This document shows positions 14,854 to 55,556 of a stretch of DNA of 64,000 bases, piece after piece (the first letter of the stretch is position 1; every line of letters starts with the position of its first letter). The position numbers and the translations under genes were made by a program. The stretch is taken from contig OY762266.1 of the NCBI GenBank assembly GCA_963665285.1, positions 2,337,527 to 2,401,526 on the forward strand, read 5' to 3'. The notes below the pieces were generated by a model. That model was not told the DNA's origin and searched no databases. It saw only the letters and a program-made list of their open reading frames with translations. The stretch comes from Candidatus Poribacteria bacterium. Its GTDB lineage: Bacteria; Poribacteria; WGA-4E; PCPOR2b.

Positions 14854-15945
14854 TTAATCAAAATCCTGCTCCGTAACCAGATATTTTTTAACCGCATCGT
14901 GATTCAGAGTGTATCCCAATCCGGGGCGATCCGGCACAAGAAAACAGCCATCTTCAAAAGGAAAATCCTCATTGACTAGGGTATCCTCCCAAGCCATAGG
15001 GCCAACCATATCATACGGCTGCGTCAGGTGGGGCATGCAAGCAGCCACATGCAATCCCATAGCCGCGCCCGGTCCGTACGCCACCGTTTGTGACCAACCA
15101 CCCATCCCCAATTCATGGGCGAGACGTGACTGACTAATCGCTTCAAAGGCAGTGGAGCCACCTACAATCGCGTAATCAAGTGCTTCTGCCTGAAACCGCT
15201 GGATGAGATCTTCGCTGTTATAGACGTGATCACCCACAGGGAGGTGGATGGTCTGCCGGAGACGACGCCACTCCGAAAAGGTGCCACCCGCAGCGCGTTT
15301 AGTTATCGGGCTTTCTAGACTATCCACCCGGTGCCCCTGCAAACGGCGGGCAAGTTCTTGAGCCACCCAGACCTCCTCAAGTCGCCAGCGAATATCGGGG
15401 CGTACTGCCATATCTGGTAGAACTTTGTGGATGGCTTCGATGCGGTCAGCGACATAGCGGATGCGTTCCTCTGGTGTTGTTTCTCTGCTGGTGATGCACT
15501 TCATCTTGTAGGCGCGAAAGCCGTGCTCCCATCCCCACTGTGCATCCTCTGCTGTGTGCTGCGGTGTTTTGTAGCCGGTACATTGGGTGACAAAAACACG
15601 ATCCCGGAGTCTACCGCCAAGCAAACTCCAGATCGGAACGCCGAGTGCCTGACCGCGCAGATCGAGTATCGCCTGTTCAAAAGCACCCACCATCGGCATT
15701 GTCGGGACAGTGAAATTAATCTCTAGCACATCCTGCCCCAGCCAGCCATTTAGCGTTGCCTCCATAGTTTCCAGCGGCGTATCACGCCCTACTTGGGTGA
15801 GCCCTGTTAGGCCTTCACTGGTTTCGACTTCCGCGATACCGTGTTCCGATCGTTGGTGTGTTGGCTGACCATAAAAGTCGTCAGACCACCACCACTTTCG
15901 TTCAGGTACGTTGACAATATAGAGTTTGATATGGGTGATTTTCAT
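14854..15945 (-). CDS. enolase-superfamily enzyme (mandelate racemase/muconate-lactonizing family, probable sugar-acid dehydratase)
   Basis: MKITHIKLYIV N-terminal capping domain plus TIM-barrel region with the metal-ligand pattern of MR/MLE family members. RBS ACGGAGG. Confidence 0.75.
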   Translation of the reverse strand: MKITHIKLYIVNVPERKWWWSDDFYGQPTHQRSEHGIAEVETSEGLTGLTQVGRDTPLETMEATLNGWLGQDVLEINFTVPTMPMVGAFEQAILDLRGQALGVPIWSLLGGRLRDRVFVTQCTGYKTPQHTAEDAQWGWEHGFRAYKMKCITSRETTPEERIRYVADRIEAIHKVLPDMAVRPDIRWRLEEVWVAQELARRLQGHRVDSLESPITKRAAGGTFSEWRRLRQTIHLPVGDHVYNSEDLIQRFQAEALDYAIVGGSTAFEAISQSRLAHELGMGGWSQTVAYGPGAAMGLHVAACMPHLTQPYDMVGPMAWEDTLVNEDFPFEDGCFLVPDRPGLGYTLNHDAVKKYLVTEQDFD

Positions 15946-15976
15946 AACCGGCGGTGTCCTCCGTTATTTGACTGCT

Positions 15977-17271
15977 CCCAATGTTGAAACATTGGGATTC
16001 TTAATAGACTGATTGGTAGACATTAGCATCTCCATGCTATTTTCTTGTTTCGACGAGACAAGCCACGTATTGCTGGTGTGGTCTTACTATCTCTCCACCC
16101 TGATAAATCGGGATCCTTTCGGACAAGCGTTTTACGTCTCCGTGTGTCCCCCGGCGACGTTTCTGAGGTTTATCGCAGCGTTAAGGTCTCTGTCTTGTGT
16201 ATGCCCACAATCGCTGCAATGGTAAGTCCTATCCGATAGTGACAGGTCTTTGTCTTTTGCCCCACAAGCCGAGCAAGTCTTACTGGACGGGTAGAAATTT
16301 TAACGCCTATCCGTTCTGCTTTGTAGGCAAGCATAGTGAGAAAACTGGATAGGGAAGTGTCCGATAATACCTTTGCAAGCCTGTGGTTTTTTAACATACC
16401 TGCAACATTCAGTGACTCAATTCCAATACGACTCGCACCATGGACGATAGCCGTTGTTGCTTGGTGTTGAGCGTCCTGTCGAATGCAGGTGATACGGTAG
16501 TGTAGTTTGGCAAGTTTCGCTTTCGTCTTATGCCAATTCCGACTCCCTTTTTTCCGACGGCTTAACTGACGTTGCAGCCGTTTTAGCTTGCGCTCGTAAC
16601 GCTTTAAGGCTTTGGGGTTTTCGTGATATATACCTTCGGACGTGACAGCTAAGTGCTTGATACCTACGTCAACACCAACAACAGGCAGATGTCGATTGTC
16701 AGCAATAGTATCGTTATCGAAAGTATCAACAGTGATAGAAGCAAACCAACGGTGCACCGTTTTACAAATAACAACCTTAACGATAGTGCCGAGGTGTCGA
16801 AGTTTTTGGAACATGCGAACCCAACCCATCTTGGGTAGTTTTATACGCTGTCCTTCGACGATAGTTGTGCCTCGACCCGCATCCGCTTGGAAACTTTGAC
16901 CCCGTGAACGCTTCTTGAACTTTGGAAAACGACTCTGACCTGACTGCCAACGTTTGACTGCACGCTGAAAGTTGAAGTAAATCGCATTATGAGCAGCGCG
17001 CTGATTGAGTGCTTTACACCAATCGTATTGCTCATGTTTGGTAGCGTTGAATCGCTTGTTTAATTCTATATGTGAACGCCATTGTCCTTCGTCCAAGCTA
17101 GCCTTAAAATCAGCAAGGACATGGTTATACGCAACACGAGCATAGCCACAGTGTTGAGCGAATTGTGTCGATTGAATGTTGTTGGGATCTAAAGCGATTT
17201 TGTGAGTTTTTAACATTGGAAGTGGCTTTAGAAAAAAGGTTCGCTGTCTGACCCAACGCTAAAGCATTGGG
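15977..17271 (-). mobile_element. IS200/IS605-family tnpB-only element (IS1341-type), approximate bounds set by subterminal hairpins
   Basis: Hairpins CCCAATG-TTGAAA-CATTGGG (15977-15996) and CCCAACGC-TAAA-GCATTGGG (17252-17271) flank the tnpB ORF. Both are followed by the shared CATTGGGATT. No tnpA present. Confidence 0.5.
16132..17216 (-). pseudogene. tnpB: TnpB (IS605 OrfB, RuvC-like RNA-guided nuclease family), frameshifted near the C-terminus
   Basis: RuvC-I (VGVDVGIKHLAV) and RuvC-II (IGIESLN) are in the annotated frame. The zinc finger and RuvC-III (NFYPSSKTCSACG...YHCSDCGHTQDRDLNAAINL) are encoded intact in another frame and end at the TAA at 16132-16134. The switch maps to the A4/T4 run at about 16296-16308. 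Confidence 0.75.
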
Positions 17272-17310
17272 ATTGTTTCCAGAATTTTCAAAAACTGATT
17301 GTCAGCCCTT

Positions 17311-17859
17311 TTATCGGCTGATCGGTTCCAAGCCGTGCTCCCAATCGCAGTCAAGGCAAAAACTTATCTCCTGTGCGAGGTGCTGGATCTTGCCGTCACA
17401 GATAGGACAGGTTGTGATTTCCGAGACAACAGACGGTACAGGAGACGCTTCACCTTCATCTCGTTTACCGATTCGGAGATGTGTACATTCGTAAATGTGC
17501 CCGTTGCATTCGGAGCAACGGTAGAAGAAATTGGAGTGCAATCCGGTAATGTCCGGCGGAATGATGCAATCTAACTCGTAGATAACCGTATTATCACGGA
17601 TAAGTCGGGCTTTCCCTGAATCTTCAATAGCGATTGCGTCCACCTCGTCAAGATTGGGTTCTAGCTGTACAACCAACCCATCAATCCGATAAGCGGCAAC
17701 AGCCCACGGCAGCTCTGTTACCCCGAAGATGATGCTGGTCCGCTGCGGCGCAAGTCTCTCAAAAATATGGTTACCGGCGAGTATCTTCACCGGAGCAAAA
17801 TCGTCCTGAAAAGTAAAATAGGGATTCGCCTGATTCAGGTCGTTCATAATTGACACCAC
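17311..17859 (-). CDS. hypothetical protein with C-terminal Cys-rich zinc-ribbon (CxxC...CxxC...CxxC)
   Basis: CSECNGH...CTH...CPICDG...CLDCDWEH cluster. Start ambiguous between 17859 and 17844. Confidence 0.45.
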   Translation of the reverse strand: MVSIMNDLNQANPYFTFQDDFAPVKILAGNHIFERLAPQRTSIIFGVTELPWAVAAYRIDGLVVQLEPNLDEVDAIAIEDSGKARLIRDNTVIYELDCIIPPDITGLHSNFFYRCSECNGHIYECTHLRIGKRDEGEASPVPSVVSEITTCPICDGKIQHLAQEISFCLDCDWEHGLEPISR

Positions 17860-39409: not shown

Positions 39410-40126
39410 CTACCTCCACTTCTGAACTGTAACCATCAAAACACTCAAATAAAGGAAAAAACCGATAACGGAAAAGTAATAGATGAGATCCCGAGAATCG
39501 ATAACGCCTCTCAGAATGCTGCTAAAATGGGCACCCAAGCCGAGATAACTGAAAATCGGGACAATCCAGTTCGGCGCATTGAAAAGCACAATGTCTTCAC
39601 CGATGATAAGCAACCCAAAGCACATCACAATTCCAAGGATGAAGGCGATAATCTGATTTTCCGTAATGGTAGAGGCAAACATCCCAATGGAAAGGTAAGC
39701 CGCTCCCATCAGGAAAAGCCCAATGTAGCCGCCGAAGATGGGACCCCCATCAGGCTCCCCAAGGTAGGCGACAGTAATGGGTATGGAAAGGGAGAGCAGA
39801 ATGGTTACCCCAAGCAGGCAAAAGCCAGCGAGATATTTCCCGATAACCACCTCATAATCCTTAATGGGCAGGGTCATCAAAATTTCAACTGTGCCTATCT
39901 TCTTTTCCTCTGCCCAAAGTTTCATAGTGACCGCCGGAATGAACAGAAGGAATATCCACGGCACCCAACTGAAGAAACCTCGCATTACGGCTTGACCTAC
40001 GAGGAAAAAGCCCCGAAAGAAAAACCAAGCGGAAAGCGCGAGAAAAAATGTGATAAAGATATACGCGATAGGCGAATTAAAGTAGCTTCTAAACTCCTTC
40101 TTGAAAATTGCTGCGATGTTGTTCAT
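39410..40126 (-). CDS. ABC-2 type transporter permease (GldF-like)
   Basis: Six TM helices, ABC-2 family pattern. RBS AGGAGG. Confidence 0.7.
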   Translation of the reverse strand: MNNIAAIFKKEFRSYFNSPIAYIFITFFLALSAWFFFRGFFLVGQAVMRGFFSWVPWIFLLFIPAVTMKLWAEEKKIGTVEILMTLPIKDYEVVIGKYLAGFCLLGVTILLSLSIPITVAYLGEPDGGPIFGGYIGLFLMGAAYLSIGMFASTITENQIIAFILGIVMCFGLLIIGEDIVLFNAPNWIVPIFSYLGLGAHFSSILRGVIDSRDLIYYFSVIGFFLYLSVLMVTVQKWR

Positions 40127-54171: not shown

Positions 54172-55556
54172 CCCCATCCCTTTAGGGTGGGGATGTAGCA
54201 CGCCCAAGTGCGTTGTTAGTCAAAAAACGGTTGAGATTGCAGGTAAAAGATGCTACAGTTACCTTGGCTTTCGTGAGAGGGCGCAACTTCGCTGCTTAGT
54301 GGCACCTCTCACCTCCAATTGCGTGGACATGAAATCCAGATAGCCAATTGCATAATGAAAACCTACAAGTTCAAAATGTATAGCAACCACAATAATCGTG
54401 AGTTGCAAAAAACGATTGACAGCCATGCTCATGTGTGGAATCACTTTGTGGCGTTGTGTCGCCGATACTATGCTATCTACGGGACATATCCGGGTAAGAA
54501 AGCACTGATGCGCCACTTAACCAAGTTGAAGCGGCTTCCCCGCTTTGCCCATTGGAATCAGTTGCCGAGTCAATCGTTGCAAGACGTAATAGACCGACTT
54601 GATAAAGCGTACTCTAAACTGTTTACTGACCGCAAAAGCGGCAAACGTTCCGGTCGTCCCCGTTTCAAGAGACGTAAACTATACAAGTCCTACACGCTCA
54701 AGCAAGCGGGTTGGAAACTGCTACAAGACAACTATATCCGTATCGGCAAACGGATATACCGATATTTCAAAAGTCGGAAAGTCTTAGGCACGCCGAGACG
54801 CTGTACGATTAAGCGGGACAGCGTAGGGGACGTATGGCTAATCATTCTGACAGATCATGTAGAGATGCCCTTGAATCGACCCACGACGGGTAACAGCGCG
54901 GGGTTCGATTTTGGACTCAAGCGGTATCTCACCGGGTCCGACTCCAATGACTACGACTCTCCACAATTCTTCAAACGGAGTCTCAACGCTATCAAACGTG
55001 CAAACCGCAACCGCTCACGAAAGGTTAAAGGTTCAAACAACCGTGAACGTGCGAGACTCAATGTTGCACGGAAACACCGACGTATTGCCAATCAAAGAGC
55101 CGACTTCCATTGGCAGCTAGCGCATGAGCTAACAGACCGGTATGATTGGATTTCACTGGAGACCCTCACCATTAAGGGCATGAAAAGCCTTTGGGGTCGT
55201 AAGGTCTCTGATTTGGGGTTCTATGACTTCGTCCAGAAACTGAAGTATATTAACTCTAAGAAACAGCATCGTGAAGTCCGATTCATTGATAAGTGGTATC
55301 CATCAAGCCGAACCTGTCACGTCTGTGGCGCAATTAATCAAGATCTGAACCTTCGTGACAGAACATGGCAATGTCCAAATTGCCACACAGAGTTGGATAG
55401 AGACCGTAACGCTGCGGTCAATATTCATAGGGTAGGGGCATCTACCCTCTCAGAAGAGGTCGTAAGTCCCAGTTCACCGGGCTAACTTCGTTGATAGAGC
55501 AATTCGACACCTTAAAAGGGAACGGGTGAGAATACCCACCCTTTAGGGTGTGGGAG
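54172..55556 (+). mobile_element. IS200/IS605-family tnpB-only element (IS1341-type), approximate bounds set by subterminal hairpins
   Basis: CCCCATCCC-TTTA-GGGTGGGG (54172-54192) upstream and CCCACCC-TTTA-GGGTGTGGG (55535-55556) downstream of tnpB share the CCCTTTAGGGTG core. No tnpA. Confidence 0.5.
54355..55485 (+). CDS. tnpB: TnpB (IS605 OrfB family RuvC-like, putatively RNA-guided, endonuclease), apparently intact
   Basis: MKTYKFKMYSNHNN N-terminus. RuvC-I (AGFDFGLKRYL), RuvC-II (ISLETLTIKGM), zinc finger (CHVCG...CPNCH) and RuvC-III (DRDRNAAVNI) all present in one frame. Confidence 0.85.
   Translation: MKTYKFKMYSNHNNRELQKTIDSHAHVWNHFVALCRRYYAIYGTYPGKKALMRHLTKLKRLPRFAHWNQLPSQSLQDVIDRLDKAYSKLFTDRKSGKRSGRPRFKRRKLYKSYTLKQAGWKLLQDNYIRIGKRIYRYFKSRKVLGTPRRCTIKRDSVGDVWLIILTDHVEMPLNRPTTGNSAGFDFGLKRYLTGSDSNDYDSPQFFKRSLNAIKRANRNRSRKVKGSNNRERARLNVARKHRRIANQRADFHWQLAHELTDRYDWISLETLTIKGMKSLWGRKVSDLGFYDFVQKLKYINSKKQHREVRFIDKWYPSSRTCHVCGAINQDLNLRDRTWQCPNCHTELDRDRNAAVNIHRVGASTLSEEVVSPSSPG

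Follow-up and report, generated by a model that had tools for sequence, protein, structure and literature searches.

A tnpB-only IS200/IS605-family element in Candidatus Poribacteria whose tnpB is very probably a young pseudogene created by a 16-nt deletion

The window, by which we mean the whole 64,000-nt stretch of DNA analysed here, contains a locus at which an FAA-hydrolase gene, a 178-aa gene, tnpB, an MR_MLE-family gene, and a tricorn-like protease gene follow one another in this order. The tnpB gene belongs to an element on the minus strand that extends from about 15968 to 17286, between the 178-aa gene and the MR_MLE-family gene, with a predicted TAM, TGAA, at 17287-17290, and both of its ends are intact. 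This region of the Candidatus Poribacteria chromosome (15968-17290, minus strand) is an IS200/IS605-family element, which we class as tnpB-only and non-autonomous because no tnpA is found within its 1.3 kb and there is no room for one. Assignment to the family rests on a TnpB with HTH_OrfB_IS605, OrfB_IS605 (RuvC), and C-terminal zinc-ribbon domains (the last out of frame in this copy), on subterminal hairpins at both the left end (LE) and the right end (RE) in combination with a lack of terminal inverted repeats, and on mobility, as shown by copies with conserved ends in more than 30 differing flanks in Poribacteria genomes. Insertion sites of other copies include ClpP/ClpX, FGGY/MR_MLE, BNR/amine oxidase, and many more, and the genes listed beside copies with Pfam annotation are host genes, except for an IS3-type insertion at one locus (L092). 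At the first two sites examined, an MR_MLE-family (enolase-superfamily) gene adjoins the element, which lies upstream of this gene in the window (15945 / 15968) and downstream of it in L001 (1895-2896); this adjacency is probably a coincidence, as other sites have unrelated neighbours.

The LE (17217..17286, minus strand) comprises a spacer, AATTCTGGAA, a DNA-guide, ACAAT (17272-17276), located just 5' of the hairpin, an imperfect hairpin that is seen directly in the sequence (CCCAATG-CTTTAG-CGTTGGG, 17252-17271; on the plus strand CCCAACG CTAAAG CATTGGG, with one stem mismatch), and a leader up to the ATG. The RE (15968..16000, minus strand) is composed of the DNA-guide GAAT (15997-16000), 5' of the hairpin, a perfect hairpin (CCCAATG-TTTCAA-CATTGGG, 15977-15996; CCCAATG TTGAAA CATTGGG on the plus strand), AGCAG, and the terminal motif TCAA (15968-15971). 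The two hairpins that an earlier note on this DNA had described as running into CATTGGGATT on the plus strand are indeed present, at 15977-15999 and 17252-17274; nowhere else in the window does CATTGGGATT occur exactly, and both hairpins are followed by ATT. Near-matches at other window positions (e.g. 39680-39725) fall within coding sequence, lack hairpins, and were dismissed as chance. The boundaries were fixed by comparison among copies: copies at unrelated chromosomal sites become homologous at the LE and, at the other end, cease to be so exactly after GTCAA (...CATTGGGAGCAGTCAA, window 15968). At 31 independent insertion sites, the bases upstream of TGAN vary and the conserved sequence starts with TGAN, which in the window is the TGAA directly 5' of the left end. 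This conserved tetranucleotide is the predicted TAM and left cleavage site (17287..17290, minus strand), which we place outside the element by analogy with IS608 and ISDra2. The immediate flanks, AGTTTT[TGAA] and ATAACGG, share no target-site duplication.

The last base of each presumed cleavage motif covaries with the DNA-guide at the same end. Among 31 left ends, TGAA occurs with ACAAT in 23 and TGAC with ACAAG in 7, with 1 exception, and among 69 right ends, TCAA accompanies GAAT in 55 and TCAG accompanies GAAC in 13, again with 1 exception. This covariation at both ends supports the assignment of the TAM and the terminal motif, and it is what would be expected, by analogy, if a Y1 TnpA used an internal DNA guide beside each hairpin to recognise the cleavage motifs, as in the general model of recognition (PMC10055086). 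If TGAA does lie outside the element, the unoccupied allele of the intergenic region between the 178-aa gene and the MR_MLE-family gene would be expected to read ...CAGTTTTTGAA|ATAACGGAGG.... A search of JGI metagenome contigs for an empty site of the form CTGACAATCAGTTT-N(0-12)-AACGGAGGACA gave no match, and look-ups through the proteins on either side led solely to occupied sites or to contigs breaking at the IS.

The 3' part of the element is predicted to encode a structured RNA. An RNAalifold analysis of 29 copies yielded 44 predicted pairs, 16 of which are backed by compensatory double changes (e.g. GC<->UA in 12 sequences); a version based on seven sequences was also made. The predicted ωRNA scaffold (15968..16179, minus strand) overlaps the 3' end of tnpB and the RE, with the structured part formed by the last ~50 nt of tnpB plus the RE, and it includes a long-range helix in which GCUGC inside the coding sequence pairs with GCAGU just before the terminal CAA. 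A conserved structured RNA that is predicted to span the tnpB 3' end and to finish at the RE boundary fits the ωRNA of TnpB systems, and Rfam returned no match in 15800-17400 at E<=1. Nearly all of this region is unchanged in the window copy. Just past the tnpB stop lies an optional hairpin module of ~26 nt, GTCCGAAAGGATCCCGATTTATCGGG (window 16089-16114, minus strand; alignment columns 77-106), which some copies have and others lack, and in place of which a few carry a variant with two CCCGATTTATCGGG units; the module looks like an indel-prone, dispensable ωRNA stem, and a G-to-A change at 16101 in the window and its closest orthologues breaks one pair of its hairpin. The LE also occurs in two length classes (noted in L019, L022-L024, L026-L028, and others): in one, which includes the window copy, the hairpin precedes the ATG by ~60 nt, and in the other by ~165-215 nt, so that the longer class contains an extra ~105-150 nt between the hairpin and tnpB.

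In the list of open reading frames, tnpB appears as a minus-strand gene of 348 codons (16170..17216) with its ATG at 17216 and its stop at 16170-16172. Its product consists of 307 native residues, covering the HTH, the WED/REC, RuvC-I with D183, and RuvC-II with E267, followed by 41 out-of-frame residues, and it matches HTH_OrfB_IS605 (PF12323, E 1e-8) and OrfB_IS605 (PF01385, E 3e-25) in Pfam. Past ...AYKAERIGVKI, this frame reads STRPVRLARLVGQKTKTCHYRIG..., for which there is no TnpB counterpart, and continues in a non-homologous tail (...GVKISTRPVRLARLVGQKTKTCHYRIG...). The missing C-terminus was located by translation and tblastn in the -1 frame at 16132..16299 (minus strand), which encodes NFYPSSKTCSACGAKDKDLSLSDRTYHCSDCGHTQDRDLNAAINLRNVAGGHTET up to a stop at 16132-16134. 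This remnant carries FYPSS, the CxxC...CxxC zinc ribbon, and the RuvC-III DRD (D344 of the intact protein), the zinc-ribbon/RuvC-III part being NFYPSSKTCSACG…DRDLNAAINL. When the two frames are joined, the Cas12f1-like_TNB/zinc-ribbon domain (PF07282) is recovered with an E value of 1.2e-17; in the window copy, this domain is out of frame, as is D344, while D183 and E267 are in frame. Translation and Pfam thus agree with the earlier note, which had reported an aberrant tail running to 16170, a canonical end in another frame at 16132, and a change of frame near 16296-16308; the junction was found at 16296|16297.

The domain architecture of the intact protein can be read from a homologue of 366 aa (P0001), which is 99% identical to the window tnpB and is the best match among many homologues of exactly 366 aa. 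It aligns end to end with the structures of ISDra2 TnpB (8bf8/8exa/8h1j, E about 1e-55), with an E value of 1.3e-55 over ISDra2 residues 8-373. The catalytic residues were placed from the motifs conserved in the alignment of P0001 with ISDra2 TnpB (8bf8/8exa), and through this alignment to a characterised TnpB the full RuvC D-E-D set is found in VGVDVG (D183), IGIESL (E267), and QDRDLNAA (D344), with both CxxC pairs conserved as well. Another tnpB is present in the window at 54319..55485 (plus strand), where it is intact, encodes 388 aa, and contains all three Pfam domains. The description of the gene studied here as a "second tnpB copy" is loose: the two are only ~26% identical and represent different TnpB lineages, not the same IS; at such identity, the intact gene was of no use as a reference for the lesion.

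The comparison with other copies of the element that the earlier note had proposed proved decisive and exposed a 16-nt gap. In a DNA alignment of the window with one orthologous intact locus and five other copies, a single clean gap of 16 columns is present in the window only. The junction lies at 16296..16297 (minus strand) according to this alignment and to pairwise alignments with seven orthologous loci, in each of which the window copy shows the 16-column gap (reported at 16296|16297 for L002), and it sits inside the plus-strand GAAATTTTAACGC (16294-16306). The bases missing from the window copy are, in tnpB orientation, TGTAGAGGCAGACACC, which correspond to the five conserved codons VEADT plus one base, and the placement of the junction is ambiguous by 1 nt owing to a shared T, that is, a microhomology of 1 nt. 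At the protein level, close homologues read GVKIVEADTFYPSS where the window has GVKI/FYPSS, or, over a longer segment, GVKIVEADTFYPSSK versus GVKI, a change of frame, and FYPSSK in the window. The segment GVKIVEA[D/E]TFYPSS is found in all eight aligned relatives, and the joined window protein would have 361 aa, five residues fewer than the 366 aa of close homologues. The A4/T4 run of the window arises from the deletion itself, which abuts AAAAT to TTCTAC. Given the 1-nt microhomology, end-joining or a replication error may have caused the loss. The resulting product, from which the zinc ribbon and the third RuvC carboxylate are missing, should be nuclease-dead, judging from its sequence.

The allele appears to be confined to one strain. 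All seven orthologous loci, which share the neighbouring genes of the window (L002, L090, L091, L092, L093, L094, and L096), carry a 366-aa tnpB, and the 16 nt are present in each of them in pairwise alignment; L002 was among the fetched homologue loci, and the other six came from a look-up of the 178-aa neighbour in other assemblies. L090 belongs to a co-occurring strain in the window contig's own sample (ERZ25084387), where tnpB is intact at this locus. Within the IS, the window differs from its orthologues by 2-8 substitutions, with the exception of L092, in which the RE is broken by another insertion, and only two substitutions are private to the window, at 16756 (Ala to Val) and at 16151 (Val to Gly), the latter in the now out-of-frame part, where it breaks one predicted ωRNA pair. 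Over 7 kb, the window is 100% identical to ENA ERZ25084387 ctg36534l, and two assembled contigs, one of 2.2 Mb and the other of 6.26 Mb (the latter at NCBI), encode exactly the 348-aa product; these records may share the origin of their data. Since both records carry the loss and the copy has private substitutions of its own, the allele is most simply taken as real and very recent.

Two further observations concern these orthologous loci. In L092 (GCA_000372285.1 AQTV01000469.1), tnpB is intact, and an IS3-type insertion with HTH_Tnp_1 and rve genes follows soon after its stop (L092:4359-5259); alignment to the window breaks off near the window equivalent of 16085, within the ωRNA/RE region, and the element has here been disabled by another route, via its ωRNA and RE. 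Moreover, over 15400-17800 the IS diverges by only 0.15-0.6% between strains, versus ~2-6% for the host flanks (L002, L090, L091, L093, and L094), and in several strains the tract of low divergence reaches ~250-550 nt past the RE. The contrast could stem from recombination, from a sweep, or from gene conversion between copies of the IS. Homing or gene conversion specific to the IS was not retained as an explanation: the loci were fetched by exact TnpB or left-neighbour identity, so that ascertainment bias is likely, and the tract passes the RE.

Decay of this kind is widespread in the family. A scan of species-representative genomes recovered 72 loci, all from Poribacteria MAGs, of which 55 have a continuous full-length frame; in the other 17 (roughly a quarter), tnpB is frameshifted, interrupted by stops, internally deleted, or truncated, with 1 of the 17 located at a contig end. 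As 17 of the 72 family loci are disrupted, a decayed copy is commonplace, and the window copy is an ordinary case of IS decay in a typical tnpB-only element. One of the disrupted loci, L067 (OZ252032.1, Ca. Poribacteria; L067:3380-3390), contains an independent, frameshifting deletion of 44 nt in tnpB that overlaps the 16-nt deletion of the window by 10 nt. A hairpin-mediated hotspot was considered for these two overlapping deletions and rejected, as the intact segment folds no better than shuffled sequence (z -0.91), and we treat the overlap as a coincidence. A literature search combining Poribacteria and TnpB found no paper.

Taken together, we regard it as highly probable (roughly 0.87) that the tnpB gene of the window is a very young, strain-specific pseudogene that arose through a 16-bp deletion, and that the allele is real. 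The suggestion that this is a young pseudogene in a hairpin-bounded IS, with its zinc finger and RuvC-III out of frame, accordingly stands, but the single-nucleotide cause that the earlier note had attached to it does not. The most serious competing explanation, which we consider improbable, is that the 16-nt gap is an artefact of assembly or polishing, produced when a repeated element was assembled from a mixed-strain metagenome, and that the real gene is intact. Repeats of a multi-copy IS are prone to assembly errors, and the sample ERZ25084387 does contain a strain with an intact gene at the locus (L090); on the other hand, the exact 348-aa product recurs on two assembled records of different size, the two private substitutions are consistent with a distinct allele, and a clean loss of 16 nt is not typical of long-read errors of the homopolymer type.

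Explanations that grant the split gene a function fare considerably worse. Nuclease-dead TnpB derivatives (TldR) exist, and the window gene retains the 307 N-terminal residues, which include the ωRNA- and DNA-binding parts, RuvC-I, and RuvC-II, together with an almost unchanged ωRNA region, such that one may think of expression through -1 frameshifting, of a TldR-like, nuclease-dead DNA binder, or of a dominant-negative regulator of paralogous TnpBs. We hold all of this to be extremely unlikely: the allele is private to one lineage, with seven orthologues intact, and its three private changes leave no time for selection. A programmed -1 frameshift of the IS1/IS3 type was rejected, since no X XXY YYZ heptamer can be read in the upstream frame at the junction and the relatives use a single frame (eight close relatives and 55 of 72 loci); even a perfect shift would leave the protein five residues short in the conserved segment. 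In place of the clade-wide loss of RuvC activity, the lost transposon ends, and the guide against a host promoter that characterise TldR, there is a private lesion with no clade-wide conservation, intact ends, and retention of D183 and E267. A related idea, only marginally less remote, is that the segment around residues 296-311, hit by both the window deletion and the one in L067, forms a recurrent deletion site and that products devoid of the zinc finger and RuvC-III, in combination with an intact ωRNA, act as nuclease-dead RNA-guided binders or as dominant-negative inhibitors of paralogous TnpBs, which would be an early step towards TldR-like exaptation and not plain decay. Finally, an indel of one nucleotide, or a sequencing error, within the A4/T4 homopolymer of an otherwise intact gene, as first proposed and in line with the position of the frame change at the coding-strand AAAATTT, has a negligible chance of being correct, because 16 additional nucleotides occur at exactly this junction in every intact relative examined, the T-run is itself a product of the deletion, and, with 16 nt missing, the gain or loss of one base, which had been expected to rescue the gene, cannot restore it, as the protein would still lack VEADT of the conserved segment.

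For the pseudogene reading, the working of the family may be outlined by analogy with characterised relatives. Intact copies would produce the 366-aa TnpB, a homologue of the RNA-guided nuclease of ISDra2, and transcription running from the 3' end of tnpB across the RE would yield the ωRNA. The published TnpB/ωRNA model draws the guide from the DNA flanking the RE (PMC10055086), and in the window the putative guide would be the flank ATAACGGAGGACACCGCCGG, directly 3' of the RE boundary (15967-15948, minus strand); the flank at this guide position (15948-15967) doubles as the 5' leader and RBS of the MR_MLE-family gene that follows it (ATG at 15945). Excision of the element by a TnpA acting in trans would be expected to leave a donor joint adjacent to TGAA, which TnpB-ωRNA would then cut, and subsequent recombination would reinstate the element. 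With its ends intact, the window copy could likewise be mobilised in trans by TnpA, and its ωRNA might be used in trans by the TnpB of intact paralogues.

For annotation, the gene is best recorded as a tnpB pseudogene that arose through an internal deletion of 16 bp, in an element that is otherwise intact, with no homopolymer error to be 'fixed', and its significance beyond a correct annotation is small. As a by-product, the analysis provides the ends, a probable TAM (TGAA/TGAC), the terminal motif (TCAA/TCAG), and an ωRNA-like structure for a TnpB lineage abundant in Poribacteria, an element definition that could serve the mining of compact RNA-guided nucleases.

Among known systems, ISDra2 offers a close structural reference. 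The TAM of ISDra2 is TTGAT, and the window element likewise has a short conserved motif, TGAA, 5' of its LE. Intact relatives of the window tnpB align over their full length with ISDra2 TnpB, with the RuvC D/E/D residues and the CxxC...CxxC zinc ribbon, and both elements combine a structured RNA over the tnpB 3' end and RE with subterminal hairpins and an absence of terminal inverted repeats. Unlike ISDra2, the window element has no tnpA, its product lacks the zinc ribbon and RuvC-III as a result of the 16-nt deletion, and its predicted ωRNA has no Rfam model. The resemblance to IS608 of Helicobacter pylori concerns the ends. The DNA-guide model of IS608 predicts covariation between the cleavage motif and the guide bases, and at both ends of the window family the last base of the cleavage motif does covary with the base that precedes the hairpin on its 5' side; the window RE also resembles IS608 in ending in TCAA with GAAT 5' of the hairpin, whereas the left motif is TGAA or TGAC in the window family and TTAC in IS608.

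With TldR, the window gene shares only a predicted product without RuvC-III and the C-terminus; it differs in that the element keeps its transposon ends and the gene its RuvC-I and RuvC-II carboxylates, the allele is confined to a single strain and ends in an out-of-frame nonsense tail, and a conserved target has no support. The IS1341-type (tnpB-only) members of the IS200/IS605 family, and decayed IS copies in general, provide a further match: the window element is likewise a single-gene tnpB element, present in multiple copies in Poribacteria, roughly a quarter of which are decayed, and it differs from them in nothing of substance, being simply a very young case with two private substitutions and a deletion.
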